This document shows positions 25,214-62,845 of a stretch of 64,000 nt of DNA, one piece after another (the stretch's first letter is position 1; every line of letters starts with the position of its first letter). The DNA is taken from sequence record OP114733. One strand, given 5' to 3'. Below the pieces are notes generated by a model. It was not told the origin of the DNA, ran no database searches, and saw only the letters and a program-made list of their open reading frames with translations. The DNA is from Escherichia phage vB_EcoM-pEB20. The translations under genes were made by a program, and so were the position numbers.

Positions 25214-25250
25214 GTTTACAAGGTCTATGGTTATGTTATTATAGACCTAT
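25214..25250 (+). promoter_or_regulatory. early promoter with IR AGGTCTAT/ATAGACCT
   Basis: GTTTACA 25214, -10 TATTAT 25237. Confidence 0.5.
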
Positions 25251-25269
25251 CAACTACTGGAGGTAAAAC

Positions 25270-25797: not shown

Positions 25798-25799
25798 AC

Positions 25800-25824
25800 G
25801 CTTTACCCAAGGACGGGTTATAAT
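25800..25824 (+). promoter_or_regulatory. middle (MotA-type) promoter candidate
   Basis: MotA-box-like GCTTTAC at 25800, 12 nt, TATAAT at 25819. Confidence 0.45.
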
Positions 25825-25859
25825 GGTTCTGAGTTCCAATTCAATCTGAGGAAATAGTT

Positions 25860-26855: not shown

Positions 26856-26884
26856 TGTACAACCAAGGAAGGTTGGAGTATAAT
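26856..26884 (+). promoter_or_regulatory. early promoter, near-identical to copy at 27851
   Basis: TGTACA..CAACCAAGGAAGGTTGGAG..TATAAT. Confidence 0.5.
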
Positions 26885-26910
26885 AAATTTTTCAACATGA
26901 GGAATATAAA

Positions 26911-27846: not shown

Positions 27847-27850
27847 ATCA

Positions 27851-27880
27851 GTTTACAACCAAGGATGGTTGGAGTATAAT
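27851..27880 (+). promoter_or_regulatory. early promoter, near-identical to copy at 26856
   Basis: GTTTACA 27851, CAACCAAGGATGGTTGGAG, TATAAT 27875. Confidence 0.55.
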
Positions 27881-27908
27881 GAATTTATCTTAACGAGAGG
27901 AAAATATT

Positions 27909-28859
27909 ATGACACGTTCACATTACATTGAATACTTTGCAGGTCTTATCGCTAACGTTCATGCCCAACGTGCTTCTGGTGCACTAGGATTTGATGTTCC
28001 ACACCGAGATGTAGTAAGTGGTATTCTTCGCGATTTTGGTACATACACAGGCCAAGAAAATCATATCTGTAAAGATACTCAGAATGCGTATTCTCATTCA
28101 TTAGGGACGCTGCTTCAATGGTTCAAACGTTCTCGTTTATTATCTTCTACTGTAGCTCGCGATAACATTAAAAACTTTATGAAACCGAGCTTTATTAAAT
28201 CTGTGACATCTAAAACTGATTTGGTTGAATTCACTATTGTTAATGATGTTAAAAAGACTCATTTGGCTGATTGGTTATCTACCATTCCTGAAACTAAATT
28301 TGCTGATAAATTTGCTTGTGAATTCAATAAACAAGTGAATATGCTTTTTAAACATTCTCGTAAATTATTCACTGGCGGTGATGGCCGTACAAATAAAGTT
28401 CATGTTAAAGATTGGGTTACTGCAGTATTCAAACCAACTGGTAATGGTAACGCATCATTATCAATTGATATCCAGGTTCCTTATTACTACTCACGTAATC
28501 TCGGTACCATGAAAGCCGAAGAAATTAATAAGCACAACAAAACTATTCGTTCGTTGTCTTATAAACTTATTACATTGTTAGAGACTATGGATGTTGTTGA
28601 AACGTTCGACGAATCCGAAGATAACGGTTCAATGTTATATAGTTCTCGTACCCGAATTAAGTTGAAGAACCCTAACGAGTATAAACTTAAGACTATTAAA
28701 GAACCTAAAGTAGAAAAGGTTGATATCATGGCTGAAGAACGTGAATATCTCAAATCTCGTCTGAAAGAAGTCGAAGCCCAGATTGCAGAACAAACTAAAT
28801 CGTTAAAAGCTCTGAATGCGAAAGCGGATGGTTTACGAAATGCCATTGAGGTGTTATAA
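27909..28859 (+). CDS. hypothetical protein with C-terminal coiled coil
   Basis: 316 aa ORF. Confidence 0.6.
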   Translation: MTRSHYIEYFAGLIANVHAQRASGALGFDVPHRDVVSGILRDFGTYTGQENHICKDTQNAYSHSLGTLLQWFKRSRLLSSTVARDNIKNFMKPSFIKSVTSKTDLVEFTIVNDVKKTHLADWLSTIPETKFADKFACEFNKQVNMLFKHSRKLFTGGDGRTNKVHVKDWVTAVFKPTGNGNASLSIDIQVPYYYSRNLGTMKAEEINKHNKTIRSLSYKLITLLETMDVVETFDESEDNGSMLYSSRTRIKLKNPNEYKLKTIKEPKVEKVDIMAEEREYLKSRLKEVEAQIAEQTKSLKALNAKADGLRNAIEVL

Positions 28860-29164
28860 TGAGCCTACGTCTTTTAGAGGATATTGATATGAGCACTAAT
28901 CATGACTTGGTTAAGTTTATTGACGATAGTTCAAAGATTGAATTTGTTCAGCGAGATAAAATCCACGGTGAAGAAGAGTTCGTTCCTCCGGCATGGAACG
29001 AAATAATGAAAATGGTTGAACGACGTGAAAATGCTGCCAAATCGGCAGCAAAACATCCATGCCCGGAATGTGGAACTATCCAAGTCCAACTGGTTAACTG
29101 GACCACTGATAACTTGAAATTGAAATGCCGTAAATGCTTCCACAAATTTGAGAGAACATTATAA
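28859..29164 (+). CDS. zinc-ribbon hypothetical protein
   Basis: 101 aa; CPECG...CRKC. Confidence 0.5.
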   Translation: MSLRLLEDIDMSTNHDLVKFIDDSSKIEFVQRDKIHGEEEFVPPAWNEIMKMVERRENAAKSAAKHPCPECGTIQVQLVNWTTDNLKLKCRKCFHKFERTL

Positions 29165-29577
29165 TGAGATATAGCCTTCGTTGTTTTATCGCAGCTTTAG
29201 TTTTTGCTATTATTCCATTCATTTGGAACAGCCAGAATACTTACATGGAAACTAAAGTAATTCCTGTGGAGGTAGTGGAATTAATCTCAGGCCAATCTAC
29301 AGGAAAATATTCTAAATTAGAATTTATTGCAGTCTATAAAGATGAGCAAGGACGAGTTTTTGACAGGCGTGTATCACCGTCGTTTTATACGCTTCTGAAT
29401 AAAGGTGATACGATAGCTATAGAAATTCGTGAGATGGATATCAAACAAACTACTAAAGATAACTTGATTTGGTTCTTTGGTACGGTGTTGTTGGTTTCTA
29501 TCTGTATCACAGGTTTTATTACATGTATTGTATTTGGCATTGCATATTTAATCGATGAAAGGAAAAATAATGTTTAA
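29164..29577 (+). CDS. membrane protein
   Basis: 137 aa; N- and C-terminal TM helices. Confidence 0.5.
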   Translation: MRYSLRCFIAALVFAIIPFIWNSQNTYMETKVIPVEVVELISGQSTGKYSKLEFIAVYKDEQGRVFDRRVSPSFYTLLNKGDTIAIEIREMDIKQTTKDNLIWFFGTVLLVSICITGFITCIVFGIAYLIDERKNNV

Positions 29578-29833
29578 AGTGTACGGGTATGACTCTACTA
29601 TTCATAAATGCATTTATTGTGATAATGCGAAACGATTGCTGACTGTTAAGAAACAGCCGTTCGAATTCATTAACGTGATGCCAGAAAAAGGTGTTTTTGA
29701 TGATGAGAAAATTGCTGAGCTTCTGGTTAAGCTTGGACGTGAATCACAAGTCGGATTGACTATGCCTCAAGTGTTTGCTCCTGACGGAAGTCACATTGGT
29801 GGATTTGATCAACTGCGAGAATATTTTAAATGA
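29570..29833 (+). CDS. nrdC: glutaredoxin/thioredoxin NrdC
   Basis: 87 aa MFKVYGYDSTIHKCIYCDNAKRLL; CxxC redox motif; near-identical to T4 NrdC as recalled. Confidence 0.9.
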   Translation: MFKVYGYDSTIHKCIYCDNAKRLLTVKKQPFEFINVMPEKGVFDDEKIAELLVKLGRESQVGLTMPQVFAPDGSHIGGFDQLREYFK

Positions 29834-30045
29834 TGCTTGAAGGAACTGATTATATCCATGACTACCGCGGAAGCGCGGTATATGTAGGTGATGAAGTTGC
29901 AGTTTATTATGGGTATGGAACTTTGATGACAGCCAAGGTTATTCAAATTAAAAATAATCGTGCTAAACTCGAAGTTTATTATTCTAATGGCGAAAAGTCT
30001 ATTTCTAAATGGAAATACGGCGATTGCATGGTCAAACTGGGGTAA
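29830..30045 (+). CDS. hypothetical protein
   Basis: 71 aa ORF. Confidence 0.5.
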   Translation: MMLEGTDYIHDYRGSAVYVGDEVAVYYGYGTLMTAKVIQIKNNRAKLEVYYSNGEKSISKWKYGDCMVKLG

Positions 30046-30047
30046 AT

Positions 30048-30218
30048 ATGATTTACGATATTAGTGCAGCAAGAGCTCCATCAATGGTTACTATTCCTGT
30101 TGAAGAATTAGATCGTCTTCAGAAAATTGAAGAGCTTCTTTGGGAAATTGAATCTGATTTGCCATCTGGGCTAGAATCCTGGATTGATTATGAAGAACTT
30201 AATAAGCTCCGCGGTTAA
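30048..30218 (+). CDS. small hypothetical protein
   Basis: 56 aa from ATG 30048. Confidence 0.4.
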   Translation: MIYDISAARAPSMVTIPVEELDRLQKIEELLWEIESDLPSGLESWIDYEELNKLRG

Positions 30219-30267
30219 ACCATGGTATTCGGCTCGATGGGAGACGGTCGAGCCAGACGTCGAAACA

Positions 30268-30297
30268 GTTTACAACGACGAAGAAACGTGTTATGAT
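30268..30297 (+). promoter_or_regulatory. early promoter
   Basis: GTTTACA 30268, 17 nt, TATGAT 30292; preceded by 7-bp hairpin 30231-30254. Confidence 0.5.
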
Positions 30298-30346
30298 GAA
30301 CCTTCAATAAATGAATTAATTGATATGGAAATGGGAAGAGATTATT

Positions 30347-30517
30347 ATGCAAGTTAAATTATTGTACCGTTTATTAAAAAATGGCAAGCATGATTGGTAT
30401 TTGCTTATTAAAACCGATCCGAATTTTTTCTCTGGACAACCATTTACAGTTCGTCCTACTAAACGTCAGCTTCGCAAAGCTAAACGTTCTCATCGTAACT
30501 TTTATAGAGAATATTGA
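30347..30517 (+). CDS. small basic hypothetical protein
   Basis: 56 aa from ATG 30347 with GGAAGAG SD. Confidence 0.4.
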   Translation: MQVKLLYRLLKNGKHDWYLLIKTDPNFFSGQPFTVRPTKRQLRKAKRSHRNFYREY

Positions 30518-30518
30518 T

Positions 30519-30944
30519 ATGAATATTTCTGAAACTCGCGGTAAATGGTTCAAGATTGTTAAAGAAGATGAAGAACTACAAGTCAAGTTTCCTGAATTAA
30601 AGAAAGGAACAATCATCAAGGTAATTGGTACTACGACCGAAGATGGTTATGGCGACCATGGCATTATTGAAGTGATGTTGAACACTGGTGAGAAACTTTG
30701 CATCTATGACCGTGATACTTCTCTTTGGTGCTTCTGGGAATCACATTCAATAGATGAACTCGAAGAAATTGATTCGGCTGATATTGCGGATGTGCTAGGT
30801 AGTAAACTTGGCGAATTCGAAGGTGAACGTATTTCTTATGCATTAGCTAAATTAGCCGGACAAGAAAATAACGACGGCTATGAAGGTAACCTGATGCAAG
30901 CAGCCGCAGAATACATTGAATATTTAGAAAGACGTTTAAGTTAA
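30519..30944 (+). CDS. hypothetical acidic protein (position of T4 pin, identity unverified)
   Basis: 141 aa from ATG 30519. Confidence 0.5.
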   Translation: MNISETRGKWFKIVKEDEELQVKFPELKKGTIIKVIGTTTEDGYGDHGIIEVMLNTGEKLCIYDRDTSLWCFWESHSIDELEEIDSADIADVLGSKLGEFEGERISYALAKLAGQENNDGYEGNLMQAAAEYIEYLERRLS

Positions 30945-45174: not shown

Positions 45175-47886
45175 ATGAAAGAATTTTACTTAACGGTTGA
45201 ACAGATTGGTGATTCAATTTTTGAACGTTACATCGATTCTAATGGCCGTGAACGTACTCGTGAAGTAGAATATAAACCATCACTGTTTGCTCATTGTCCA
45301 GAAAGTCAGGCTACAAAATATTTCGATATCTACGGTAAGCCGTGTACTCGTAAGTTGTTCGCTAATATGCGTGATGCCTCCCAATGGATTAAACGCATGG
45401 AAGATATCGGACTTGAAGCACTTGGCATGGACGATTTCAAATTGGCGTATTTGTCTGACACTTATAACTATGAAATCAAATACGACCATACAAAAATTCG
45501 TGTGGCTAACTTCGACATCGAAGTAACATCTCCGGACGGGTTCCCTGAGCCGTCACAAGCAAAACATCCGATTGATGCTATCACCCATTATGACTCAATT
45601 GACGACAGGTTCTACGTATTTGATCTATTGAATTCTCCATATGGTAATGTAGAAGAATGGTCTATTGAAATCGCTGCTAAGCTTCAAGAACAAGGTGGTG
45701 ATGAAGTTCCATCTGAAATTATCGATAAAATCATTTATATGCCGTTCGATAGCGAAAAAGAATTGTTGATGGAATATCTCAACTTCTGGCAACAGAAAAC
45801 TCCTGTCATTTTGACTGGATGGAACGTTGAGTCATTTGATATTCCATATGTGTATAACCGAATCAAGAATATTTTTGGCGAATCTACTGCGAAACGTTTA
45901 TCACCACATCGTAAAACTCGTGTTAAAGTTATCGAAAACATGTATGGTTCTCGTGAAATCATTACATTGTTCGGTATCTCTGTTCTTGATTACATTGACC
46001 TTTACAAAAAATTCTCTTTTACCAATCAACCGTCGTATTCTCTGGATTACATTTCAGAATTTGAATTGAACGTTGGTAAACTGAAATATGACGGCCCTAT
46101 TTCTAAGCTTCGTGAAAGCAATCACCAACGATATATTTCTTATAACATTATCGACGTGTATCGTGTATTGCAAATTGATGCTAAGCGTCAGTTCATCAAC
46201 TTGAGCTTGGACATGGGTTATTATGCTAAGATACAGATTCAATCTGTGTTCAGCCCAATTAAAACATGGGATGCCATTATTTTTAATAGCCTTAAAGAGC
46301 AGAACAAGGTGATTCCACAAGGTCGTTCTCACCCGGTTCAACCTTATCCTGGCGCTTTTGTTAAGGAACCTATTCCAAATCGATACAAATATGTAATGAG
46401 TTTCGACCTTACATCTCTGTATCCAAGTATTATTCGCCAAGTGAATATTAGCCCGGAAACAATAGCAGGAACGTTTAAAGTAGCTCCACTGCATGATTAT
46501 ATTAACGCTGTTGCTGAACGTCCTTCAGATGTGTACAGTTGTTCTCCTAACGGCATGATGTATTATAAAGACCGTGATGGTGTAGTTCCAACTGAAATCA
46601 CTAAGGTCTTTAATCAACGTAAAGAACATAAAGGTTACATGCTTGCAGCTCAACGTAATGGTGAAATAATTAAAGAGGCATTGCATAATCCTAATCTTTC
46701 TGTTGACGAACCATTAGATGTTGATTATCGTTTCGACTTCAGCGATGAGATTAAAGAAAAGATTAAAAAGTTGTCTGCTAAATCTCTTAATGAAATGTTG
46801 TTTAGAGCTCAACGTACTGAAGTTGCAGGTATGACTGCACAAATTAACCGTAAATTGCTCATCAACTCACTTTATGGTGCACTTGGAAACGTTTGGTTCC
46901 GTTATTATGATTTGCGTAATGCTACTGCAATCACAACATTCGGGCAAATGGCTTTACAGTGGATTGAACGTAAAGTTAATGAATATCTGAATGAGGTTTG
47001 TGGTACAGAAGGCGAAGCTTTCGTTCTATATGGTGATACAGACTCCATTTACGTATCTGCAGATAAAATTATTGATAAGGTTGGTGAATCTAAATTCCGT
47101 GATACCAACCATTGGGTAGACTTCTTAGATAAGTTCGCTCGTGAACGTATGGAACCAGCTATTGATAGAGGTTTCCGTGAAATGTGTGAATACATGAACA
47201 ATAAACAACACTTAATGTTCATGGACCGAGAAGCTATCGCTGGGCCTCCGCTCGGTTCTAAAGGTATTGGTGGATTCTGGACTGGTAAGAAACGTTATGC
47301 ATTAAACGTGTGGGATATGGAAGGTACTCGTTACGCTGAGCCTAAACTCAAAATCATGGGTCTCGAAACACAGAAATCTTCGACTCCTAAAGCAGTACAG
47401 AAAGCTCTTAAGGAATGTATTCGTCGTATGCTTCAAGAAGGTGAAGAATCATTACAAGAATATTTTAAAGAGTTTGAAAAAGAATTCCGTCAATTGAATT
47501 ATATTAGCATCGCGTCGGTATCTTCTGCGAATAACATTGCTAAATATGACGTCGGTGGATTCCCTGGCCCCAAATGTCCGTTCCATATTCGTGGAATTCT
47601 GACATATAACCGGGCTATCAAAGGTAATATTGATGCTCCACAAGTTGTAGAAGGTGAAAAAGTATATGTTCTGCCTTTACGTGAAGGAAACCCATTCGGT
47701 GATAAATGTATCGCATGGCCTTCTGGTACTGAAATCACAGATTTAATTAAAGACGACGTACTTCATTGGATGGACTACACTGTTCTCCTTGAGAAGACAT
47801 TTATTAAACCACTTGAAGGATTCACATCAGCAGCGAAACTCGATTACGAGAAGAAAGCATCTCTGTTCGATATGTTCGATTTTTGA
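45175..47886 (+). CDS. 43: DNA polymerase gp43 (B family)
   Basis: 903 aa; exo motifs FDIEV, YNIIDV; pol motifs DLTSLYPSII, KILINSLYGALG, YGDTDS; matches RB69 polymerase as recalled; no intein/intron. Confidence 0.97.
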   Translation: MKEFYLTVEQIGDSIFERYIDSNGRERTREVEYKPSLFAHCPESQATKYFDIYGKPCTRKLFANMRDASQWIKRMEDIGLEALGMDDFKLAYLSDTYNYEIKYDHTKIRVANFDIEVTSPDGFPEPSQAKHPIDAITHYDSIDDRFYVFDLLNSPYGNVEEWSIEIAAKLQEQGGDEVPSEIIDKIIYMPFDSEKELLMEYLNFWQQKTPVILTGWNVESFDIPYVYNRIKNIFGESTAKRLSPHRKTRVKVIENMYGSREIITLFGISVLDYIDLYKKFSFTNQPSYSLDYISEFELNVGKLKYDGPISKLRESNHQRYISYNIIDVYRVLQIDAKRQFINLSLDMGYYAKIQIQSVFSPIKTWDAIIFNSLKEQNKVIPQGRSHPVQPYPGAFVKEPIPNRYKYVMSFDLTSLYPSIIRQVNISPETIAGTFKVAPLHDYINAVAERPSDVYSCSPNGMMYYKDRDGVVPTEITKVFNQRKEHKGYMLAAQRNGEIIKEALHNPNLSVDEPLDVDYRFDFSDEIKEKIKKLSAKSLNEMLFRAQRTEVAGMTAQINRKLLINSLYGALGNVWFRYYDLRNATAITTFGQMALQWIERKVNEYLNEVCGTEGEAFVLYGDTDSIYVSADKIIDKVGESKFRDTNHWVDFLDKFARERMEPAIDRGFREMCEYMNNKQHLMFMDREAIAGPPLGSKGIGGFWTGKKRYALNVWDMEGTRYAEPKLKIMGLETQKSSTPKAVQKALKECIRRMLQEGEESLQEYFKEFEKEFRQLNYISIASVSSANNIAKYDVGGFPGPKCPFHIRGILTYNRAIKGNIDAPQVVEGEKVYVLPLREGNPFGDKCIAWPSGTEITDLIKDDVLHWMDYTVLLEKTFIKPLEGFTSAAKLDYEKKASLFDMFDF

Positions 47887-47926
47887 TATAATGTCATGGA
47901 CGGTAAACTAATTAAATGAGAGAAAT

Positions 47927-48562
47927 ATGAAAACTACTCCTATTACTATCGCTATTGACGCAATTATAAAACAAGCTTCTTCTTTGGCCGCTATGGCCAA
48001 AGTAATTAGTCAAAACCCTGCTCGTTATAATGCTATTCTAGAAACTCTTCGACGCCCTGGACTTAGTAATTATGAAAGCCGGGTAATTATTACAGGTGTT
48101 GGTAAGAATGCTAATATCGCAACTAAAGCTTCCGAGACTTTTGCTTCACTCGGTATCCCGAGTATGTACTTGAACACTGGGCATTATTCTCACGGTGATG
48201 CAGGATTCATTGCGCCTAATGATGTGTTGATTCATATTAGTCGTTCTGGTAAAACTGAAGAAATGATAGGCGTGGCTAAGCATCTTAAAATGATTCGTCC
48301 GAATGTCAAACAGATTCTGTTGCATTGTAACCCAGACATTCCACAAGAAAATGAAGCCCTTTTTGATTACTCTTTCTGTACAGGCATCGCGGTAGAGGTT
48401 GATGAGAATTCTCTGGCTCCGACTATGTCCACTACATTGTTGTTAGCGCTTATCGATACGTTTGCTATCAACCTTTCGTCTGAGCGTGGATTTACCTCTA
48501 ATGACTTCCTTAAGTTCCATCCAGGCGGTGCACTAGGTGCCATGTTACGAGGCGAACAATGA
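47927..48562 (+). CDS. SIS-domain sugar-phosphate isomerase (arabinose-5-phosphate isomerase-like, KdsD/GutQ family)
   Basis: 211 aa; GVGKNANIATKASETFASLG, HGD, LAPTMSTT and HPGGALG motifs align with the KdsD SIS domain; no CBS domains. Confidence 0.8.
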   Translation: MKTTPITIAIDAIIKQASSLAAMAKVISQNPARYNAILETLRRPGLSNYESRVIITGVGKNANIATKASETFASLGIPSMYLNTGHYSHGDAGFIAPNDVLIHISRSGKTEEMIGVAKHLKMIRPNVKQILLHCNPDIPQENEALFDYSFCTGIAVEVDENSLAPTMSTTLLLALIDTFAINLSSERGFTSNDFLKFHPGGALGAMLRGEQ

Positions 48563-48743
48563 AAGCAATAACAATAGGACTTTTACTATTGATGCTTGTC
48601 ATGACTATCTACTGGAGCTTAACGGCTCCAGTAATGATTCCAACACTTGTAATTGGATGGATTATGATTGGACTACAAGCAAAGTATGAATGCTTTAACT
48701 AGAATAGTGTACAATACTCCTACTTACCAATGAGGACTTCAAC

Positions 48744-50429
48744 ATGAAAAAAGCTGTTATTCTTGGTGCTGGACTGGCAACTCGTTTGTATCCAATAACG
48801 CACCATATTCCTAAGGTGCTTGTTAACTATAAACAAGACACTATTCTAAGCAATTTGTATACAATTTATTCTGACCTTGGCGCAGATGAAATTATTGTAG
48901 TAGTTCATTCAAAATTTGCTGAAACTGTTCGAGCTTATTGTGAGCAAGAAGGGTTCAATGTGACTATTCGTACAGTTGATGAAGCGTATGGTTCTGCTTA
49001 TGCTCTTGCTAAATTACACAAAGATTTAGACGGCCATAATGTAATTGTTAACTGGTGTGATATTATTCCTGATTTTGGTTCATGGTCTTGGAATGTTAAC
49101 GCAATCTATGTTAAGGGTGACGAATGTCGATATAATTTCGACGGTGAAAATATCACTAACGTAGGTTCAACAGGTGGTAATGTTGTAGGAATTTATCAGT
49201 TCAAAGACTGGGAATTCTATATGGGTTCTACTGATGAGGAAATTCATGAATACTGCAAAGGACGTGATTTCGTAGAATTCCTTTACGGCAGCGCATTCAA
49301 TAAATCAGAGCTTATGAATCTAATTGATTTAGGTGATATGCCTAAACTTGAAAAAGCTCATGAAGTTCGTGAACTTAATCGTAGTTTTAATGCAGTTGAA
49401 ATTGGTGAAGAAACTGTAACTAAATTCGCATTAACCGAACAGGGTCGAGCTCTTCAGAAAGATGAGATTTCATGGTATCTTAAAGTGAAATCAGATTCAG
49501 TTCCTCAGTTAGTTTCGGTAAATGAAAATAATTTTGAAATGGAACGTATTAAAGGTAAGCCGGCATTTGAATATATTAAATCCAAATCAAGTCTTGCTCG
49601 TCCACAAATTGTTGATGCAATTTTAGATGCACTGAAATTCAGCACAGACACTTATTTTGTAAGTCCTGAAACTGTTCGTCGTGATTTCACTAAAGAGTTC
49701 TATACGAAAGTTATTGATCGTTGTGAAAGCATTCAACCATTGATTGATTCATTTGGTAAAATCACACATGTGAACTACACTAAGATTGGACGTCTGAAGC
49801 CAATGCTGAAACAAGCTTTAGAACACCTTATTCGTTATCATAACCGTTCTCAGGGACAGTACTCTGTTATTCATGGTGACCCGAACTTCAGTAATACTAT
49901 GATTACTGATAACGGCGAAGTCAAGTTTATAGACCCTCGTGGATATTTTGGCGAAACCAAGATTTATGGGCCAAAATTGTATGATGAAGCTAAAGTGCTT
50001 TATGCTGTTTCAGGATATGATGAATTCAATGCTAATCCGACCTGGGGACAGTTTACTATTGATGAAACAACTTGTAATGTGACTATTAACATCAATCCAT
50101 TAGTTTACAAATATGGAAAGATGAGTTCGTTTAACGAGTATCATCATTTGGCTGTAGCAATTATCTGGATTGCATTAGGTGGTTATTTCAAGAATAATCC
50201 ACTTAAAGCGGTAGCCGCATATTATAAAGGTATGGAACTTCTGACTAAGCAATTACGTAACATGGGCCGTGTACTTCAGGACGGCTCTATTAGTTATGAC
50301 GTAGCAGAACCTGTAACGGCTACTCTGATTACAAAAAATCCTGGTAAATGGGTACTAACTGATAAAGAAACCGGTGTTTCCTATCGTCCAATCGGTGGCG
50401 ATATCACTCATCAATGGGAACGAATTTAA
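48744..50429 (+). CDS. bifunctional sugar-1-phosphate nucleotidyltransferase / kinase-like protein
   Basis: 561 aa; N-terminal GAGLATRLYP (RmlA/GlmU-type NTase); C-terminal HGDPNFSN...D.E resembles APH/choline-kinase fold. Confidence 0.7.
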   Translation: MKKAVILGAGLATRLYPITHHIPKVLVNYKQDTILSNLYTIYSDLGADEIIVVVHSKFAETVRAYCEQEGFNVTIRTVDEAYGSAYALAKLHKDLDGHNVIVNWCDIIPDFGSWSWNVNAIYVKGDECRYNFDGENITNVGSTGGNVVGIYQFKDWEFYMGSTDEEIHEYCKGRDFVEFLYGSAFNKSELMNLIDLGDMPKLEKAHEVRELNRSFNAVEIGEETVTKFALTEQGRALQKDEISWYLKVKSDSVPQLVSVNENNFEMERIKGKPAFEYIKSKSSLARPQIVDAILDALKFSTDTYFVSPETVRRDFTKEFYTKVIDRCESIQPLIDSFGKITHVNYTKIGRLKPMLKQALEHLIRYHNRSQGQYSVIHGDPNFSNTMITDNGEVKFIDPRGYFGETKIYGPKLYDEAKVLYAVSGYDEFNANPTWGQFTIDETTCNVTININPLVYKYGKMSSFNEYHHLAVAIIWIALGGYFKNNPLKAVAAYYKGMELLTKQLRNMGRVLQDGSISYDVAEPVTATLITKNPGKWVLTDKETGVSYRPIGGDITHQWERI

Positions 50430-50794
50430 TGCAACTATGCTTCGATGTCGATGATTGTATAACCGAATGGAATAACAATCGTGATTACGCTAATTTTAAA
50501 CCGGACCTAGAAATGGTGGCAGCCATTAATGCCTTGTATGACGCAGGGCATACCATCACGCTTTACACTGCTCGTGGTATGAAGTCTGTAGGTCCTGGAC
50601 GTATTGCTGTAGATATCCTACCAGGTCTGTTACAGAACTTAGCTAACATTGGTTTGAAGTATCATAATTTGCTAACACATAAACCAGTATATGATTGGAT
50701 TATCGACGACAAAGCTATGCGTCCTGACGAATTCAAAGCTCTTATGAATAAAGGCGAATTCGAAACATTTAAATCATATAAACCAAATCTATAA
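50429..50794 (+). CDS. HAD-superfamily phosphatase-like protein
   Basis: About 121 aa; motif I FDVDDCIT; start 50429 (TAATG overlap) or 50414. Confidence 0.6.
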   Translation: MQLCFDVDDCITEWNNNRDYANFKPDLEMVAAINALYDAGHTITLYTARGMKSVGPGRIAVDILPGLLQNLANIGLKYHNLLTHKPVYDWIIDDKAMRPDEFKALMNKGEFETFKSYKPNL

Positions 50795-50840
50795 TAATTT
50801 AAGTAAGACCTGCAAAAACCGTCGCATCAATTAACGCGAG

Positions 50841-52010
50841 ATGCAAAAAATGAATACTTTTAAAATTGGAACGAATTTCGATTTAGCTCTTCTTGATAAA
50901 ATCGTAGAGCTCAATAAAACTTATCCTAATAGCTTGATAAATGAAGTATACGGCTCTACAAGAGAAATGGCTTTTGTAGCAGCCAGACCTGATTTTAGGC
51001 TTCCTGACGTTGACAAAAAGATGTTAGAAGACTACGTTAAACGTTGTAACGAATTAGGTATTTGCTTTAACTATACACTCAACACGATAAATCCTGGTTC
51101 AAAAAGAGAACTAGTTGAGTGGAAGAAGAAAGCTATTCAGGATTATGTTCAGTATCTTTGGTCAATAGGCGTATGGCGTATTACTATCGCTAACCCTGTT
51201 GTTATGGAAATTGTTCGTGAAGTCAATAAAGACATTGAGATTGAAGTTTCAACAATTCTACATGTCGATGCTGTAACTCAAATCAAATACTTGCATGACC
51301 AGTATAATATCAAAAAGGTCTGCTGTGGAATTCATAAGAACCGTTCAGTTTCTTTCCTGAAGCGTGCAGCAGAGTTTTGCAATAAGAACAATATAATATT
51401 TGAAGTTCTTGTAAATGAGTTCTGTTCTAATGCTGGTAAAGGGTATACAACACATTGTAGCTATCGTGACTCTTGCTATATTTTCCATAGTACTGATGTT
51501 ACAGCTGATGATGCTAAATCCTTAAACGGATATCCTATGCAGCACTGTATTAAAGCTCGTGATACAGACCCATTTAACTGGTTGAGAACTCGTTTTGTTC
51601 GTCCTCAAGATTTGAAACTTTATAATGATATTGGTATCACTCAATTTAAAGTTTCAGGACGTACAGGTAGCACAGACTACATTTTGAAAGTTCTTGAAGC
51701 ATACGCTTCTGAAAAGTTTGAAGGTAATTTGTTAGAACTGTGGAAGCCTTTAGAGACTATTTTCACTCTTGAAAACGAAACTGAGTTTTCACATACGGTA
51801 AATATTGAAACCTCTTTGTTAGACGGCTTTTTAGAAAAAAGGTGGTTCAGACATCCAGATTTCGATTGTGCTAATGAAATCTGCGGGACGACGTGTACAT
51901 ATTGTGAAAGATATTATAAACGTCAGTTATCTAAAAATGGGTTATCAGAAAACTCTATATCTATTATTGATATAACTAACTCTGATGACGCTTTGAGGTA
52001 CCCGGAATGA
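50841..52010 (+). CDS. peptidase U32-family-like protein (putative Fe-S dependent enzyme)
   Basis: 389 aa; EVLVNEFCSNAGKG and QFKVSGRTGSTDYI resemble U32 signature regions; C-terminal Cys cluster C-x4-C-x3-C-x2-C; assignment tentative. Confidence 0.5.
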   Translation: MQKMNTFKIGTNFDLALLDKIVELNKTYPNSLINEVYGSTREMAFVAARPDFRLPDVDKKMLEDYVKRCNELGICFNYTLNTINPGSKRELVEWKKKAIQDYVQYLWSIGVWRITIANPVVMEIVREVNKDIEIEVSTILHVDAVTQIKYLHDQYNIKKVCCGIHKNRSVSFLKRAAEFCNKNNIIFEVLVNEFCSNAGKGYTTHCSYRDSCYIFHSTDVTADDAKSLNGYPMQHCIKARDTDPFNWLRTRFVRPQDLKLYNDIGITQFKVSGRTGSTDYILKVLEAYASEKFEGNLLELWKPLETIFTLENETEFSHTVNIETSLLDGFLEKRWFRHPDFDCANEICGTTCTYCERYYKRQLSKNGLSENSISIIDITNSDDALRYPE

Positions 52011-52246
52011 TTTCTAGAAAAACTTTTAACCACCAACTTAATGAAGAGATTTTGACTATAAAACTGAACACTAACGAACAAATTCTTAAAAAGGCCCTGA
52101 TGGGCCTGTTTGAAACTAAAGCGGCTAAAGTGATTAAAGAACCTGTTCAATTGGAATACTACGCTGATGCATTTCTTCATAGTGTTCTTGGAAGTATCGA
52201 TGCTGAAGCTTTACGTTATATCAACATTGTCAAGAAATTCAAATAA
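52007..52246 (+). CDS. hypothetical protein
   Basis: 79 aa ORF; ATGA overlap. Confidence 0.45.
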   Translation: MISRKTFNHQLNEEILTIKLNTNEQILKKALMGLFETKAAKVIKEPVQLEYYADAFLHSVLGSIDAEALRYINIVKKFK

Positions 52247-52288
52247 GCTTTACGAATTGAGTATATAATAAATTGTATTGAGGTAAAC

Positions 52289-53005
52289 ATGGGAAAACAT
52301 AACACAATGAAATATATCAAAGCCGCAGATTTTCAAACCGCATTTAAAGCAGTCAATCGTGAAATTTTAGAAAACCCGGAATTCGTAACTGATTCTCGTA
52401 TTGGACGTTGTAATGAAATTGGGTCTATGACAGTAGTTGTTGACACTCCATCATCATTCAAAATGACCGACCCACGTATTAACCGCATCTCTTATGAATA
52501 TGCCGAAGACTTCTGGAAGTTTATGATTTCTGGTGGTACCAACGCAGAAGAAGCGTTTAAGGCATATCCTAATGTCGCTAAATTTATTTCTAAACCAAAA
52601 TCAGATGTTTTGCCGGCGAACTTCAACACTTTCTATGGTCCTCGCATTGCGGCCCAATTACCAGCTCTTCTAAAAGAACTTAAAGAGAAGCCTAACTCTC
52701 GAAGAGTTGTGTTCCAAATTCTAGAAAGTTCTGATCAGGCTTTGCTTGATTCAGACGAAACGCTTGAATATCCATGTACTGACTCAGTGACTTATTATAT
52801 TCGTGATGGTAAGCTTTATACCCACTGTCATATGCGTTCTCAGAACTGTGCTGTTGTTATGCAGTTGGATTTTTATCTCCAAGGAAAATTACTTCATTAT
52901 ATCGCTAACGAATGCGGTGTAGAAGTTGGTGATTATACTCATACCATGGTAAGTGCCCATGTGTTTGAACGTGATTTTGATTATGTTAAAGGATTCCTTG
53001 ACTAA
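52289..53005 (+). CDS. 42: thymidylate-synthase-fold pyrimidine hydroxymethylase (gene 42-like dCMP hydroxymethylase)
   Basis: 238 aa; PNSRRVVFQI and catalytic-Cys region YPCTDSVTYYIRDGKLYTHCHMRSQN align to TS/dCMP-HMase motifs; more divergent from T4 gp42 than neighbours. Confidence 0.7.
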   Translation: MGKHNTMKYIKAADFQTAFKAVNREILENPEFVTDSRIGRCNEIGSMTVVVDTPSSFKMTDPRINRISYEYAEDFWKFMISGGTNAEEAFKAYPNVAKFISKPKSDVLPANFNTFYGPRIAAQLPALLKELKEKPNSRRVVFQILESSDQALLDSDETLEYPCTDSVTYYIRDGKLYTHCHMRSQNCAVVMQLDFYLQGKLLHYIANECGVEVGDYTHTMVSAHVFERDFDYVKGFLD

Positions 53006-53904
53006 TGGCTATTTTCCGCGTACCTATCTTGAGTATGCGGTCTTATGAAACTGGACAGTATGCTATCCTTAAGGATGGCAACTTCCAACTTCATTTGCAC
53101 CGTGCTAATCCGGGTGATGTGATTACATATCCACGTAATGCATCTGATATTAAAGAATGCGAACGTCTTTTCCCAGAATTTAAGTTTGTTCCGTTATGGT
53201 ATAAAGATAACGCATATAATACTCGTAAATATTTCTGGTCTGAAAATGAATTTGTAGTTGATTCGTTGATTGCTTATTATGATTGTGATTTTCTCATCAC
53301 GGATATCACTGGATATGATGGTGCTTTTGACGTAGAATTCAATTTCAATATCACTGCAGACCCTAATAAACCACGTTTTTATATTGACGAATTCTTAAAA
53401 ACTGATATGTTGTCGGTTAATCGTTCACTTCAAACTACTGTGTTGAATGAACGTCAAAAAGAAGTGCTGGTTAACGCAGGTGCAGATGGTAATAAGATTA
53501 TCGTAACGCAGAAAGTTATACGTCCTTCCATCATGCAGCGTCTTGTAGGTGATTTGGCTCCTATTCATCTAGATGGTATTTTTCATCCATTTCGAATTAG
53601 TGACCCGTGCTATCGTTTTGAACAAGTGGTTGAATGTGCAATTCAATTAGGCCAACCGCTTTATATAACCGATCCAAATAATAGCTTCGACAGAAATAAG
53701 TATCCTGAAGAAGCACTGATTCGAATTTTTAAACCAACTAAAACTGAGTACTATCAAATTCTTAAAGGACGTCCGAAGATTCAATATTTCGAAAATCCTG
53801 AAGAAGTATTCCATCCAGGTCTTGGTGAGTTCATCTACTTTAACGCTTTAATTTCTTCGCCGTATAATATACCTAAATATGAAGATGTCGTAATCGAGGA
53901 ATAA
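53005..53904 (+). CDS. hypothetical protein at the position of T4 beta-glucosyltransferase
   Basis: 299 aa; no recognised motif; synteny only. Confidence 0.55.
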   Translation: MAIFRVPILSMRSYETGQYAILKDGNFQLHLHRANPGDVITYPRNASDIKECERLFPEFKFVPLWYKDNAYNTRKYFWSENEFVVDSLIAYYDCDFLITDITGYDGAFDVEFNFNITADPNKPRFYIDEFLKTDMLSVNRSLQTTVLNERQKEVLVNAGADGNKIIVTQKVIRPSIMQRLVGDLAPIHLDGIFHPFRISDPCYRFEQVVECAIQLGQPLYITDPNNSFDRNKYPEEALIRIFKPTKTEYYQILKGRPKIQYFENPEEVFHPGLGEFIYFNALISSPYNIPKYEDVVIEE

Positions 53905-53905
53905 A

Positions 53906-54454
53906 ATGGCTAAAATTATTTTAGTAGATGGCCCGGATAATGCTGGTAAAACAACTTTCATTAATGACATAATGGAAATTAGTGAAAGATATGTAAAGAT
54001 TGATTTCCCTAAACGAACAGTTGATGGGCGTTTCGATGTTAAGTCTCGAAATGAAGTTGGCTGTTTCGAAACGATGTTGAATTATTTAGACCCTACTAAG
54101 ATTTATCTGTTAGACCGTGGATATATTAGTAACTGGGTTTATGGACGTATTCGACAAGATGCGGACTCGATTCTTGACGTTTATGAACAGGACTATGTTC
54201 GTCTTTGCCAAAACCATGATGTGTTCACAATTATTTTAACACGTAACGAAATGACTGAAAGTTTTGAAGACGACCTTATTACTTTGTCTTCACTCAGTTT
54301 CAATACAGTCATTTCACATTTTGAAGAGTTTGCAATTCATAACAAAATCCAAACGTATCAATTACTTAATCATGATGGTGCTAACAAAGTTATAGGATTT
54401 AATGCAAGCGAACGTAATTATTTGATTACAGAAATTATCAAATGGGCTCGTTAA
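53906..54454 (+). CDS. P-loop kinase-like protein
   Basis: 182 aa; Walker A VDGPDNAGKTT at N-terminus as in NMP/small-molecule kinases. Confidence 0.6.
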   Translation: MAKIILVDGPDNAGKTTFINDIMEISERYVKIDFPKRTVDGRFDVKSRNEVGCFETMLNYLDPTKIYLLDRGYISNWVYGRIRQDADSILDVYEQDYVRLCQNHDVFTIILTRNEMTESFEDDLITLSSLSFNTVISHFEEFAIHNKIQTYQLLNHDGANKVIGFNASERNYLITEIIKWAR

Positions 54455-54552
54455 GAGCCATTTAAAGTTTTAAATGCTGTATAACCCTTAGTATATAATC
54501 ATCTTATCTTTTAAACATGAGTAAAATATAATGATGCCTATGGAAAAATACA

Positions 54553-55725
54553 ATGTCTGATTTAAAATCTCGTCTGATTAAAGCTTCTACTTCTAAAATG
54601 ACTGCGGACTTGACTAAGTCTAAGCTGTTTAATAATCGCGATGAAGTCCCTACTCGTATTCCGATGTTGAATATTGCATTAGGCGGTGCACTGAATGCCG
54701 GGTTGCAATCAGGCTTAACTATTTTTGCTGCTCCTTCTAAACACTTTAAAACGTTGTTTGGACTGACCATGGTTGCAGCGTATATGAAGAAATATAAAGA
54801 TGCAATCTGTTTGTTTTATGACTCAGAATTCGGTGCTTCAGAATCTTATTTTCGTTCAATGGGTGTTGATTTAGACCGTGTAGTTCATACTCCTATTCAA
54901 TCTGTCGAACAACTTAAAGTTGATATGACTAATCAGCTAGATGCAATCGAACGTGGCGAGAAAGTTATTATCTTTATTGACTCAATCGGTAACACTGCAT
55001 CTAAGAAAGAAACCGAAGATGCTTTGAACGAGAAAGTTGTAGGCGATATGTCTCGTGCTAAGGCACTTAAATCTTTATTTCGTATCGTAACGCCTTATCT
55101 GACTATTAAAGATATTCCGTGCGTTGCAATTAACCACACTGCTATGGAAATTGGTGGATTATATCCTAAAGAGATTATGGGTGGTGGTACAGGTATTCTT
55201 TATTCAGCCAACACCGTATTCTTTATCTCTAAACGTCAGGTTAAAGAAGGTACAGAATTGACCGGTTATGACTTCACGTTGAAAGCAGAAAAATCTCGTA
55301 CAGTTAAAGAGAAATCTACTTTCCCAATCACGGTTAATTTTGATGGCGGTATTGACCCATTCAGTGGCTTGTTAGAAATGGCAACTGAAATTGGTTTTGT
55401 AGTTAAGCCTAAAGCCGGTTGGTATGCTCGTGAATTCCTTGACGAAGAAACAGGTGAAATGATTCGTGAAGAGAAATCGTGGCGTGCTAAAGCTACTGAT
55501 TGTGTAGAATTCTGGGGACCTTTGTTTAAACATAAGCCTTTCCGTGACGCAATTGAAATGAAATATAAGCTAGGCGCTATCTCGTCTATTAAAGAAGTTG
55601 ATGACGCTGTTAACGACCTTATTAATTGCAAAGCAACAACTAAAGTTCCGGTTAAAGCTTCTGATGCTCCATCTGCAGCAGATATTGAAAACGACCTGGA
55701 CGAAATGGAAAATTTTGATGAATAA
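54553..55725 (+). CDS. uvsX: RecA-like recombinase UvsX
   Basis: 390 aa MSDLKSRLIKASTSKMTADL...; Walker A GLTIFAAPSKHFKT; near-identical to T4 UvsX as recalled. Confidence 0.95.
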   Translation: MSDLKSRLIKASTSKMTADLTKSKLFNNRDEVPTRIPMLNIALGGALNAGLQSGLTIFAAPSKHFKTLFGLTMVAAYMKKYKDAICLFYDSEFGASESYFRSMGVDLDRVVHTPIQSVEQLKVDMTNQLDAIERGEKVIIFIDSIGNTASKKETEDALNEKVVGDMSRAKALKSLFRIVTPYLTIKDIPCVAINHTAMEIGGLYPKEIMGGGTGILYSANTVFFISKRQVKEGTELTGYDFTLKAEKSRTVKEKSTFPITVNFDGGIDPFSGLLEMATEIGFVVKPKAGWYAREFLDEETGEMIREEKSWRAKATDCVEFWGPLFKHKPFRDAIEMKYKLGAISSIKEVDDAVNDLINCKATTKVPVKASDAPSAADIENDLDEMENFDE

Positions 55726-58603: not shown

Positions 58604-58972
58604 ATGAAAAAATTAATCGCTTTAGCAATGGTATTTGGATTAACCGGATGTGGTGCCCATGGCTTTATCCCTAATAACGTTGGCCAACTGATTTACAATC
58701 CGAATGTTAAACAGTACGACCACCCTAAAGTTGAAGTGGAAGACCCGGTTACTGTAGGTAATCGAATGATTCAAGCTGATGCCCATGCTCAACGTTATCG
58801 TGACTCTGATACTGTAGCATTGTCAAAAGAACAACGCGTTAAAGAACATTGCTTACAGGCTACTGAAATCGCATTCATTCGCTATGTTGAAACAACTGGT
58901 AAAGAGCCTACCCAGAAACAAATCGCGAATAACTACGTACAGTGTATTGAACGTTTAAACAAATTTAATTAA
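58604..58972 (+). CDS. putative lipoprotein
   Basis: 122 aa; signal peptide with lipobox LTGC. Confidence 0.6.
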   Translation: MKKLIALAMVFGLTGCGAHGFIPNNVGQLIYNPNVKQYDHPKVEVEDPVTVGNRMIQADAHAQRYRDSDTVALSKEQRVKEHCLQATEIAFIRYVETTGKEPTQKQIANNYVQCIERLNKFN

Positions 58973-59033
58973 TTGGTTTACACCAAAGTTAAAATAAGAT
59001 ACTATAAACATAACAAATCAAGAGGAAATTAAC

Positions 59034-59282
59034 ATGGAATTATTCGTAGCTAGTTCAGTAGCAGTTTTAATCGCAGGTATTGGTTCAATCATCATTTACA
59101 TGTTGCCTTGGGTAATCGCACTTATTCGTGGTACAAAAAGCACAACAGCAATCTTCTTTGTATCTTTACTCTTTAACTGGACGATGATTGGTTGGATTGG
59201 AACTTTAATTTGGTCTATCGTTGCCGAAAAGAAATCTGCTCAGCAGCCTCAACAAGTAATTATTATTCGCGAAAAAGAATAA
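59034..59282 (+). CDS. small membrane protein
   Basis: 82 aa, two TM helices, SD AGAGGAAA. Confidence 0.5.
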   Translation: MELFVASSVAVLIAGIGSIIIYMLPWVIALIRGTKSTTAIFFVSLLFNWTMIGWIGTLIWSIVAEKKSAQQPQQVIIIREKE

Positions 59283-62289: not shown

Positions 62290-62323
62290 TAAACTCTCTT
62301 ATACTGAATTGAAAGGAAAAATA

Positions 62324-62845
62324 ATGGCGCACTTTAACGAATGTTCACAACTTATTTCTGGTGTTGATAAAGCAGAAGAAGCTTATTTTAATGCTCTGAT
62401 TCACGAAGATAAAGACCCACTGCAGGTAATGCTTGATATGCAGAAATCTTTACAGGTTCGTCTGGCAAATGACAAGCCTGAACATAACAAACATCCTGAT
62501 GAATTGGCTACTGCTGGTGATGTTGTTGATTGGCTGCGTAATCAGAAAGATTATATTGATGACGAATTCCGTGAACTACTGACTTCACTTGGTGGTATGT
62601 CCAATGGTGAAAAAGCCGCTAGCTCTGTGTGGAAGCCATGGAAAGCACAACATGCCGAATATCGTAATCGTCGTATCGATGAACTGTCTCCTGAAGACCA
62701 GCTTGAAATTAAATTTGAGATGATTGATATCCTCCACTTTGTTCTGAATATGTTCCAAGGTCTGGGTCTTTCTGCTGAAGAAATCTTTAAACTTTACTAC
62801 TTGAAAAACCAACACAACTTTGAACGCCAGAATAATGGTTACTGA
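62324..62845 (+). CDS. 56: dCTP pyrophosphatase gp56 (MazG-like)
   Basis: 173 aa MAHFNECSQLISGVDKAEE...; matches T4 gp56 as recalled. Confidence 0.9.
   Translation: MAHFNECSQLISGVDKAEEAYFNALIHEDKDPLQVMLDMQKSLQVRLANDKPEHNKHPDELATAGDVVDWLRNQKDYIDDEFRELLTSLGGMSNGEKAASSVWKPWKAQHAEYRNRRIDELSPEDQLEIKFEMIDILHFVLNMFQGLGLSAEEIFKLYYLKNQHNFERQNNGY

Follow-up and report, generated by a model that had tools for sequence, protein, structure and literature searches.

A cluster of nine closely packed genes on the plus strand fills the interval between DNA polymerase gp43 and UvsX in a 64,000-nucleotide stretch of DNA (hereafter, the window) from Escherichia phage vB_EcoM-pEB20 (sequence record OP114733). 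Judging from sequence comparison, this cluster (47927-54454) is almost certainly an operon for hypermodification of DNA with arabinosyl-5-hydroxycytosine (ara-5hoC), of the RB69-like Mosigvirus type and with a published core. The system has been described before (Thomas 2018; Mahler 2025; He 2026; Lee 2026); our analysis rediscovers it and corrects the chemistry proposed in an initial annotation to 5-hydroxycytosine (5hoC). Its lasting value lies in a testable hypothesis for one conserved gene, encoding a U32-family protein, which is unexplained in the literature outside He 2026 and Mahler 2025. We propose, with moderate confidence, that this protein would act as an iron–sulphur (Fe-S), prephenate-dependent and O2-independent pyrimidine C5 hydroxylase during anaerobic infection. 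The joint reading—an ara-5hoC operon that includes the U32 protein as an O2-independent hydroxylase—is, taken as a whole, likely.

The arabinosyl-5-hydroxycytosine cluster

The cluster interval is 97.5% identical at the DNA level to positions 23901-30725 of RB69, with the gene order preserved and the window genes corresponding to RB69 gp55 through gp45 (RB69 genes 45-55); against phage NRG-P0074, the identity is 98.1%. There are 151 phage records that contain at least 80% of the interval; together with the identity to RB69, this recurrence indicates that the cluster is not a chance arrangement. The seven open reading frames (ORFs) listed in the initial annotation are all found between gp43 and UvsX, on the plus strand and with the boundaries given there; two small genes, of 79 and 47 amino acids (aa), had been overlooked. 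Profile searches of each protein and a comparison with RB69, both of which the annotation had named as checks, upheld its domain assignments and yielded the identity to RB69 genes 45-55 given above.

The annotation had gone astray on the modified base. It proposed that a nucleoside diphosphate (NDP)-arabinose glycosylates 5-hydroxymethylcytosine (5-hmC), that the thymidylate synthase (TS)-fold protein is a gp42-like hydroxymethylase of deoxycytidine monophosphate (dCMP), and that all seven proteins form one sugar pathway. This model has a precedent in the report of arabinosyl-5-hmC, for which these very genes were proposed (Thomas 2018, PMC6024577), and agrees with the TS fold and with the many database annotations that read "dCMP hydroxymethylase"; it is nevertheless highly improbable. 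Nuclear magnetic resonance and liquid chromatography–mass spectrometry show that cytosine in RB69 is replaced by mono- and di-arabinosyl 5hoC (Lee 2026, PMC13326640), and the arabinose, according to the same source, is joined directly to C5 by an ether link through 5hoC rather than 5-hmC. Moreover, RB69 gp48, a TS homologue, was shown experimentally to convert dCMP into 5-hydroxy-dCMP (5hodCMP), making 5-hydroxydeoxycytidine in vivo; it binds flavin mononucleotide (FMN), and 18O2 labelling shows that 18O from O2 is incorporated (Lee 2026, PMC13326640). The TS-fold protein of the window (Thymidylat_synt, 2.3e-15) shares 98% identity with the HY126 enzyme whose crystal structure has been solved (PDB 9IQC/9IR2/9IQU) and carries, by alignment and in E. 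coli ThyA numbering, the substitutions L143E, D169N and N177D, which serve as the hydroxylase signature following Lee 2026 (PMC13326640). A T4-type system would have Asp at ThyA position 169 together with an alpha- or beta-glucosyltransferase; here Asn occupies position 169, no second TS-fold ORF was found within the 64-kb window, and a Pfam search of the cluster interval found no glucosyltransferase domain. Phages that make poly-arabinosyl-5hoC without a U32 gene also speak against a single pathway of seven proteins. The TS-fold protein is rather a flavin- and O2-dependent dCMP 5-hydroxylase, a TS-fold enzyme switched from folate to flavin, and the 97.5% identity to RB69 suggests that the virion DNA carries arabinosyl-5-hydroxydeoxycytidine in place of deoxycytidine.

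In the base branch, as published for RB69 and HY126, the dCTPase gp56—listed as such in Table 1 of Lee 2026 (PMC13326640)—would remove dCTP and supply dCMP, which the TS-fold enzyme would hydroxylate at C5 using flavin and O2. The phage deoxynucleoside monophosphate kinase and host kinases would then produce 5-hydroxy-dCTP (5hodCTP), to be incorporated by the polymerase instead of dCTP. The P-loop kinase call of the initial annotation stands, with a match to the PHROG 761 thymidylate kinase family at 8.5e-45 and weak Pfam and NCBIfam P-loop matches, and a similar thymidylate-kinase-like enzyme accompanies glycosyltransferase and U32 genes in unrelated phages too. The 299-aa protein, left as unknown in the annotation, has no Pfam match and no PDB sequence match; however, its AlphaFold2 model (mean predicted local distance difference test score, 94.7) retrieves MshA (3c4q), sucrose-phosphate synthase (6kih) and UDP-GlcNAc 2-epimerases in Foldseek, i.e., a GT-B fold. 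RB69 gp46:47 is listed as a GT-B-like arabinosyltransferase (Lee 2026 Table 1, PMC13326640), and the modelled fold is consistent with the window protein being the proposed first DNA arabinosyltransferase, which would add the first arabinose to 5hoC in DNA. The second transferase would be a homologue of RB69 gp3, encoded outside the window.

The phage-encoded route to NDP-arabinose is complete in the window on the evidence of domain matches and synteny, comprising a SIS isomerase, a kinase/pyrophosphorylase fusion and a HAD phosphatase, as the annotation had recognized. The SIS protein matches Pfam SIS (1e-10), TIGR00393 KpsF/GutQ (2e-32), KdsD (7e-31) and PHROG 5670 (4e-116). These matches cover the SIS part only (KdsD profile positions 47-202 of 328), with scores under the equivalog cut-offs, and the protein lacks the CBS pair that comes after the SIS domain in the KdsD/GutQ layout (about 320 aa); it is best described as an isomerase-domain-only relative of the KdsD/GutQ arabinose-5-phosphate isomerases, the role given for RB69 gp55 (Lee 2026, PMC13326640). 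The 561-aa fusion has an NTP_transferase match (8.5e-10) at residues 3-99 and weak APH, fructosamine-kinase and RIO matches at residues 344-409, also matches archaeal GlmU-type and AglF nucleotidyltransferase profiles, and has the length of the corrected RB69 ORF53_52c; indeed, ORF053c/052c had been described as a single 561-residue protein (Thomas 2018, PMC6024577). The 126-aa HAD protein matches the TIGR01689 capsule biosynthesis phosphatase family (4.6e-12), HAD-IIIA (0.003) and PHROG 1238 (1e-40). According to the account of He 2026 given in Lee 2026 (PMC13326640), RB69 gp52:53 resembles HY126 AfhE, an arabinose-5-phosphate 1-kinase and UDP-arabinose pyrophosphorylase, gp51 resembles the HY126 5-phosphatase AfhF, and the isomerase, AfhE and AfhF alone account for UDP-arabinose synthesis.

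In the window, the isomerase would accordingly convert ribulose 5-phosphate into arabinose 5-phosphate, the kinase domain of the fusion would form arabinose 1,5-bisphosphate, the HAD phosphatase would release arabinose 1-phosphate, and the nucleotidyltransferase domain would yield UDP-arabinofuranose. That the module supplies activated arabinose for DNA glycosylation, as the annotation claimed, agrees with Lee 2026 (PMC13326640) and with Thomas 2018 (PMC6024577), in which arabinose was described on RB69 DNA from high-performance anion-exchange chromatography and matrix-assisted laser desorption/ionization data, arabinosyl-5-hmC was proposed and the same module was named as the probable source of UDP-arabinose. 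The further remark that such enzymes are typically annotated as hypothetical has been overtaken, the pathway having been worked out in 2025-2026.

A putative O2-independent hydroxylase of the U32 family

The U32-like call of the annotation is borne out by a Peptidase_U32 match (7.4e-11; 42 bits, gathering score 22), which places the protein within the U32 domain and fold. In alignments, C195, C212 and C236 occupy cysteine columns common to UbiU, RlhA and TrhP; the fourth canonical cysteine position is deleted in the phage protein, and C206, located in a phage-specific insert, is a candidate replacement ligand. A C-terminal CX4CX3CX2C motif (residues 343-355) is invariant and is treated here only as a candidate second metal or Fe-S site; RlhA likewise needs two U32-motif cysteines plus two C-terminal ones (Kimura 2017). 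A reading of its CX3CX2C portion as a radical-SAM motif is not supported in view of the lack of a Radical_SAM match, the C-terminal placement and the fourth cysteine. Altogether, ten cysteines are invariant in 41 U32 homologues (46-87% identity), all of them intact in the window protein. A PDB sequence search with the U32 protein returned no match. The protein has neither the DUF3656 region of RlhA nor the C-terminal region of TrhP, and it is best placed in a distinct phage-borne subfamily that is not orthologous to any of the four characterised E. coli subfamilies.

The U32 gene is the best-conserved gene of the cluster. Across 151 records, its product shows at least 99% identity; the ratio of nonsynonymous to synonymous substitution rates (dN/dS) is 0.025 against NRG-P0074, and the identity to orthologues from Klebsiella, Yersinia and Shewanella phages is 81-84%. 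In the same comparisons, identities amount to 69-87% for UvsX, 69-86% for the TS-type hydroxylase and 49-67% for the glycosyltransferase. No nonsense or frameshift U32 alleles were seen in 221 records.

Functional precedents for the family come from E. coli. RlhA converts C2501 of 23S rRNA into 5-hydroxycytidine, and its activity depends on prephenate, on Fe-S biogenesis and on conserved cysteines (Kimura 2017), while 18O-shikimate labelling identified prephenate as the oxygen donor in UbiU/UbiV-dependent, O2-independent hydroxylation steps—a chemistry that has been proposed for the whole U32 family (PMC10990095). The phage U32 protein would provide a second, O2-independent source of the 5-hydroxyl group, with prephenate as the oxygen donor, the mechanism suggested for UbiU/UbiV, RlhA and TrhP, and would allow replication of a fully modified genome when a facultatively anaerobic host grows without oxygen. 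The phage destroys dCTP and therefore cannot replicate without 5hodCTP, whose published hydroxylase needs O2; its hosts live largely without oxygen. A more specific version, to which we give slightly better than even chances, holds that this would be the first member of the U32 family to hydroxylate a DNA precursor, and that an aerobic TS-fold/FMN route is paired with an anaerobic U32/Fe-S route in which prephenate would serve to form 5-hydroxy-dCMP, or 5hoC in DNA, without O2. In this version, the chorismate mutase of relatives, or a DAHP synthase::chorismate mutase fusion, would feed the U32 enzyme, and large phages of obligate gut anaerobes would use the U32 route alone to produce glycosylated, possibly O-methylated, 5-hydroxypyrimidines. 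As between dCMP and DNA, a mononucleotide is favoured as the substrate because of the kinase- and deaminase-fused or adjacent neighbours described below. In the literature outside He 2026 and Mahler 2025, no function is stated for the phage U32 gene, and neither U32, prephenate nor chorismate mutase is tied to phage hydroxycytosine; the gene is not mentioned in the Thanatos, Durham collection and transposon-sequencing papers.

The prephenate link is most visible in relatives of the window phage. In 18 out of 24 T4-like loci, an AroQ chorismate mutase gene lies one or two genes from U32. The encoded proteins score 33-45 bits with CM_2 (gathering score, 27), their profile matches PDB chorismate mutases down to 1.5e-17, and the equivalents of the catalytic residues R11, R28, K39, E52, S84 and Q88 are conserved. 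The T4-like loci with no chorismate mutase next to U32 belong to Mosigvirus (including the window) and Marfavirus. Within a database of 50,697 records, this chorismate mutase occurs in 48 phage records, every one of them from a T4-like phage of Enterobacterales, and lies between the U32 and TS genes among the matches listed with an annotated U32. The U32 and chorismate mutase genes of Shewanella phage Thanatos-2 have been relocated as a pair to the end of the cluster, and in Kanagawavirus the pair is present in KLB31 and missing in Kosakonia phage 305.

A scan of IMG/VR added 32 large non-T4 phage loci, and two metagenome contigs were included as well; 33 of all these loci have a readable U32 ORF (10 kb was covered on each side of the gene). 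The IMG/VR contigs reach 294 kb and encode PolIII-alpha and a DnaG-type primase. A recurrent operon comprises genes for a glycosyltransferase, a SIS protein, a nucleotidyltransferase-kinase, a thymidylate-kinase-like enzyme, a DAHP synthase::chorismate mutase fusion, a HAD protein and U32; across the 33 loci, a glycosyltransferase-like cluster is found in 24, the nucleotidyltransferase-kinase fusion in 17 and the SIS isomerase in 10. A chorismate mutase or DAHP synthase domain is encoded in 13 of these loci, and chorismate mutase adjoins U32 in 11. Single proteins with an N-terminal DAHP synthase and a C-terminal chorismate mutase stand beside HAD and U32 genes in L045:7302-8357 (DAHP_synth_1, 125 bits; CM_2, 65 bits), L056:11085-12203, L042, L043 and L047, and the DAHP_synth_1 domain alone follows U32 immediately in L016 and L031. 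No hydroxylase-type TS was detected in the 33 loci, the lone TS among them (L033) bearing the ordinary ThyA signature L143/D169/N177. In phages of obligate anaerobes, U32 appears to replace the O2-dependent hydroxylase.

Other arrangements bring nucleotide enzymes next to U32. A dCMP-deaminase-family gene directly precedes U32 in L015:7447-9086 (a 466-kb phage contig), where its stop codon overlaps the U32 start codon, and in L058 (ORF upstream of 10001); thymidylate-kinase-like and UDG-family genes are also present in the vicinity. In four contigs assigned to anaerobes (L065:7912-11098, L068:7810-11086, L069:7878-11086 and L070:3984-7137), including a Phocaeicola faecalis isolate with an adjoining phage GP88 gene, U32 is preceded by a fusion of a guanylate-kinase-like domain to an S-adenosylmethionine (SAM) methyltransferase and by a protein of about 270 aa, which has no Pfam match and contains an endonuclease-III-like VAPDTHVIQ motif. 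This kinase::methyltransferase-U32 module may serve to make O-methylated 5-hydroxypyrimidine nucleotides. A second U32 copy lies in L065 at 15227-16360. Separately, an 82-84-aa protein with an N-terminal transmembrane helix, unrelated to the gp49-like protein of the window, is encoded directly upstream of U32 in L056:9653-9907, L067:3113-3361 and L071:9654-9902.

The host distribution is consistent with a role in anaerobiosis. The TS-type hydroxylase is present in 377 phage records, among them 57 of Acinetobacter phages and 22 of Rhizobium phages, and U32 in 221. The host survey of the latter comprises the ten commonest names plus 60 of the 221 rows; among the matches listed, all at least 80% identical, the host genera belong to Enterobacterales or are Shewanella, and no Acinetobacter or Rhizobium phage was seen. 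U32 is likewise absent from the locus of Acinetobacter phage Maestro and from the DLP3 cluster as listed by Lee 2026 (PMC13326640). Finally, eight U32 matches were obtained in species-representative genomes, namely metagenome-assembled genomes (MAGs) of Erysipelotrichales, Bacillota, Lachnospiraceae, Romboutsia (two), BRC1 and Tannerella, and the Phocaeicola faecalis isolate—all of which we take to be anaerobic lineages.

Several observations weigh against the assignment of U32 as an O2-independent hydroxylase. The host counts are phylogenetically clustered and not independent of one another, the taxonomy of the MAGs may stem from mis-binned phage contigs, and a TS-type hydroxylase could lie elsewhere on the metagenomic contigs, beyond the 10 kb covered on each side. 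Two phages of facultative anaerobes, Dhakavirus IME341 and Kosakonia phage 305, have no U32, so the gene is not obligatory. No chorismate mutase was found anywhere in the 64-kb window, and prephenate would therefore need to come from host PheA/TyrA. At the protein level, alignment recovers just three of the canonical Fe-S cysteines, of which there are four; pairwise BLASTP with each of the four U32 proteins of E. coli gives no significant similarity (E, 0.05-0.6), and the match to the NCBIfam UbiU model reaches 18 bits where the cut-off is 440. No U32 protein has so far been shown to act directly as a hydroxylase in a reconstituted in vitro system (PMC10990095), and gp50 is labelled "sugar or heterocycle reductase" in Table 1 of Lee 2026 (PMC13326640) and absent from the text of that paper.

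That last label corresponds to a different assignment, in which U32 belongs to the sugar branch or acts as a reductase, e.g., in tailoring a pentose or nucleotide sugar; the initial annotation, too, had counted U32 as a member of the sugar pathway. U32 co-occurs with the SIS, nucleotidyltransferase-kinase fusion and glycosyltransferase genes in T4-like and unrelated phages alike, its TIM-barrel fold is common to many sugar enzymes, and the neighbouring DAHP_synth_1 family includes KDO-8-P synthase, a user of arabinose 5-phosphate. We regard this assignment as unlikely. The isomerase, AfhE and AfhF already explain UDP-arabinose in the account of He 2026 cited above, and phages without U32 build the same sugar chains: Acinetobacter phage DLP3 makes tri-arabinosyl-5hoC (Lee 2026, PMC13326640) with no U32 listed, so U32 is not needed for UDP-arabinose. 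Moreover, U32 modules without sugar genes exist, with the kinase::methyltransferase fusion or dCMP deaminase as neighbours, and a sugar role leaves the chorismate mutase link unexplained—the fusion of the DAHP_synth_1 domain to chorismate mutase points instead to the shikimate pathway.

Similarly doubtful is the possibility that U32 hydroxylates tRNA or rRNA in the manner of RlhA or TrhP to tune translation, or is a protease, its position in the cluster being incidental. The sole characterised nucleic-acid targets of U32 proteins are RNA, and T4-like phages carry tRNA genes. A protease would recall the first description of the family as collagenases (Kimura 2017). Both options sit poorly with the DNA-modification neighbours (glycosyltransferase, nucleotide kinases, dCMP deaminase and UDG-family genes) kept across unrelated lineages, with the insertion of U32 beside the TS-type hydroxylase in T4-like phages, and with the absence of the DUF3656 region of RlhA and the C-terminal region of TrhP noted above.

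Least credible is that U32 is a decaying Mosigvirus remnant left after loss of chorismate mutase, with the O2-dependent enzyme alone in use; the window and other Mosigviruses do lack chorismate mutase, and several isolates have a frameshift or truncation in the neighbouring gp49, but the conservation within and across genera, the low dN/dS and the ten intact cysteines contradict decay. On balance, paired aerobic and anaerobic hydroxylation would be the most economical reading of these data, and we lean towards it with some confidence. T4 has aerobic and anaerobic ribonucleotide reductases, a similar pairing.

Gene layout and neighbouring features

The coordinates of the cluster genes, their flanks and the dCTPase are collected below. 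Neighbouring genes overlap by 16 nt (561-aa and HAD genes), 4 nt (U32 and 79-aa genes) and 1 nt (TS and glycosyltransferase genes). A scan of 47700-54700 for promoters and terminators gave no excess over shuffled sequences, T4 middle and late promoters being outside the coverage of the scan.

Table 1. Features of the ara-5hoC cluster and associated genes (positions within the window).
Feature	Coordinates	Strand	Basis or remark
DNA polymerase gp43	45175-47886		Upstream flank of cluster
SIS-domain-only D-arabinose-5-phosphate isomerase (predicted), 211 aa, RB69 gp55	47927-48562	+	Profile matches, published role
Hydrophobic peptide, 47 aa, RB69 gp54 position	48559-48702	+	ORF annotated at equivalent place in relatives
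Bifunctional sugar kinase/NDP-sugar pyrophosphorylase (predicted), 561 aa, RB69 gp52:53, HY126 AfhE-like	48744-50429	+
HAD phosphatase, 126 aa, RB69 gp51, AfhF-like	50414-50794	+	TIGR01689, PHROG 1238
U32-family protein, putative Fe-S, 389 aa, RB69 gp50	50841-52010	+	Peptidase_U32
gp49-like protein, 79 aa, RB69 gp49	52007-52246	+	PHROG 8601 only
TS-fold FMN/O2-dependent dCMP 5-hydroxylase (5hodCMP synthase), 238 aa, RB69 gp48	52289-53005	+
GT-B fold glycosyltransferase, 299 aa, RB69 gp46:47	53005-53904	+	Predicted fold, published proposal
Thymidylate-kinase-like P-loop kinase, 182 aa, RB69 gp45	53906-54454	+	PHROG 761
UvsX	54553-55725		Downstream flank of cluster
gp56-type dCTPase, pathway partner outside cluster	62309-62845	+	dUTPase_2, 28.5 bits; position of RB69p028 gene 56

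The 47-aa ORF, which overlaps the SIS stop codon, encodes a strongly hydrophobic peptide (MKAITIGLLLLMLVMTIYWSLTAPVMIPTLVIGWIMIGLQAKYECFN). An ORF is annotated at its position in NRG-P0074, KLB31 (as a transmembrane protein) and Virsaitis27; the peptide is a possible member of the pathway. A 50-aa ORF with a GTG start (48537-48689) is probably spurious, the conserved gene being the 47-aa ORF in a different frame.

The 79-aa gp49-like protein has no PDB match, and PHROG 8601 is its sole PHROG match; the family shares the motif YY.DAF.HS..G.I..E..RH. Its gene is the least conserved of the cluster, far more variable than its neighbours: it is split into two tblastn pieces, apparently through a frameshift or indel, in JS09, HY126, RPN187, AV112, AV118 and ZQ3, and truncated in EP02SG and DCP548. 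The possibility that it encodes a divergent chorismate mutase was discarded, with no CM_2 match at E 10, an hhalign probability of 0.5%, and gp49 and chorismate mutase present as separate neighbouring genes in phiR1-RT and 92A1. The gp49-like gene lies between U32 and chorismate mutase in these two phages, PM2 and others. In Winklervirus, the chorismate mutase ORF (L004:6158-6502) has a 40-residue N-terminal extension, whose start (MRRINHTMNEL) resembles the gp49-like N-terminus (M..INHKLNEEL), as if it were a fused gp49 remnant; from this resemblance, the ancestral gene order may have been U32, gp49, chorismate mutase and TS.

Seg-like/GIY-YIG homing endonuclease genes interrupt the cluster in other phages (L001:4115-4876, L004:4352-4990, L005:4852-5490 and L011:7737-8396), at insertion points that vary by phage—after the nucleotidyltransferase-kinase fusion, the HAD gene or the TS gene. 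No such insert was found within the window cluster. The annotation had also supposed that the module replaces imm. That gene (Imm_superinfect, 57 bits) is located at 59034-59282 on the plus strand, with an imm.1-like DUF5481 gene alongside (region 58604-59282); lying between genes 41 and 61, imm has therefore been relocated downstream and not lost.

Significance and comparison with known systems

If the proposed role of U32 is correct, it would explain how phages that destroy dCTP, and for which the one hydroxylase known so far requires O2, can multiply in the anoxic gut, and why shikimate-pathway genes, an odd presence there, are found in phage genomes. The U32 family would also gain a small soluble substrate, missing until now since in vitro reconstitution has yet to be achieved for any U32 hydroxylase, and a wide, unexplored set of 5-hydroxypyrimidine DNA modifications would be predicted in phages of obligate anaerobes. 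For phage therapy, it could matter that DNA is modified differently in the gut than in aerobic laboratory culture, so that the evasion of restriction could differ as well.

The cluster shows no substantive difference from RB69 gp45-gp55 and the HY126 Afh cluster, which match it gene for gene, also in order and in their place between gp43 and UvsX. Sequencing errors break up the 561-aa and 299-aa genes in the RB69 GenBank record, whereas each is a single intact ORF in the window, and the NRG-P0074 cluster differs in having a homing endonuclease insert. The Acinetobacter DLP3/Maestro system shares the SIS protein, nucleotidyltransferase-kinase fusion, HAD protein, TS-type hydroxylase, GT-B transferase and thymidylate-kinase-like enzyme, but has no U32, gp49 or chorismate mutase, carries extra glycosyltransferases and infects a strict aerobe. 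The T4 glucosyl-hmC system (gp42, alpha-gt and beta-gt) occupies the same genomic slot and follows the same logic—a dCTPase, a TS-fold enzyme acting on dCMP, a deoxynucleoside monophosphate kinase, incorporation and glycosylation on DNA. Unlike T4, the window system is built on flavin/O2 hydroxylation instead of folate-dependent hydroxymethylation and on a phage-made sugar donor instead of host UDP-glucose, and the transferases are unrelated.

A further parallel is the tRNA xo5U pathway, in which TrhP acts before CmoA/CmoB or TrmR: the adjacency of U32 to a SAM methyltransferase in (pro)phages of anaerobes suggests hydroxylation followed by O-alkylation. In these phages, the methyltransferase is fused to a nucleoside monophosphate kinase, which implies nucleotide rather than tRNA substrates; the arrangement is absent from the window. 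Closest to the proposed function are UbiU/UbiV, RlhA and TrhP of E. coli, which share with the phage protein the U32 TIM barrel and, in three aligned columns, the candidate Fe-S cysteines. RlhA targets C5 of a pyrimidine, and the prephenate dependence is mirrored by the phage-encoded chorismate mutase of relatives. The phage protein differs in forming a separate subfamily with the C206 insert and the extra C-terminal four-cysteine motif, and in its presumed DNA-precursor substrate. Finally, E. coli itself pairs O2-dependent with O2-independent enzymes—UbiI/H/F with UbiU/V, and TrhO with TrhP—in parallel to the proposed pairing of the gp48-type hydroxylase with U32.

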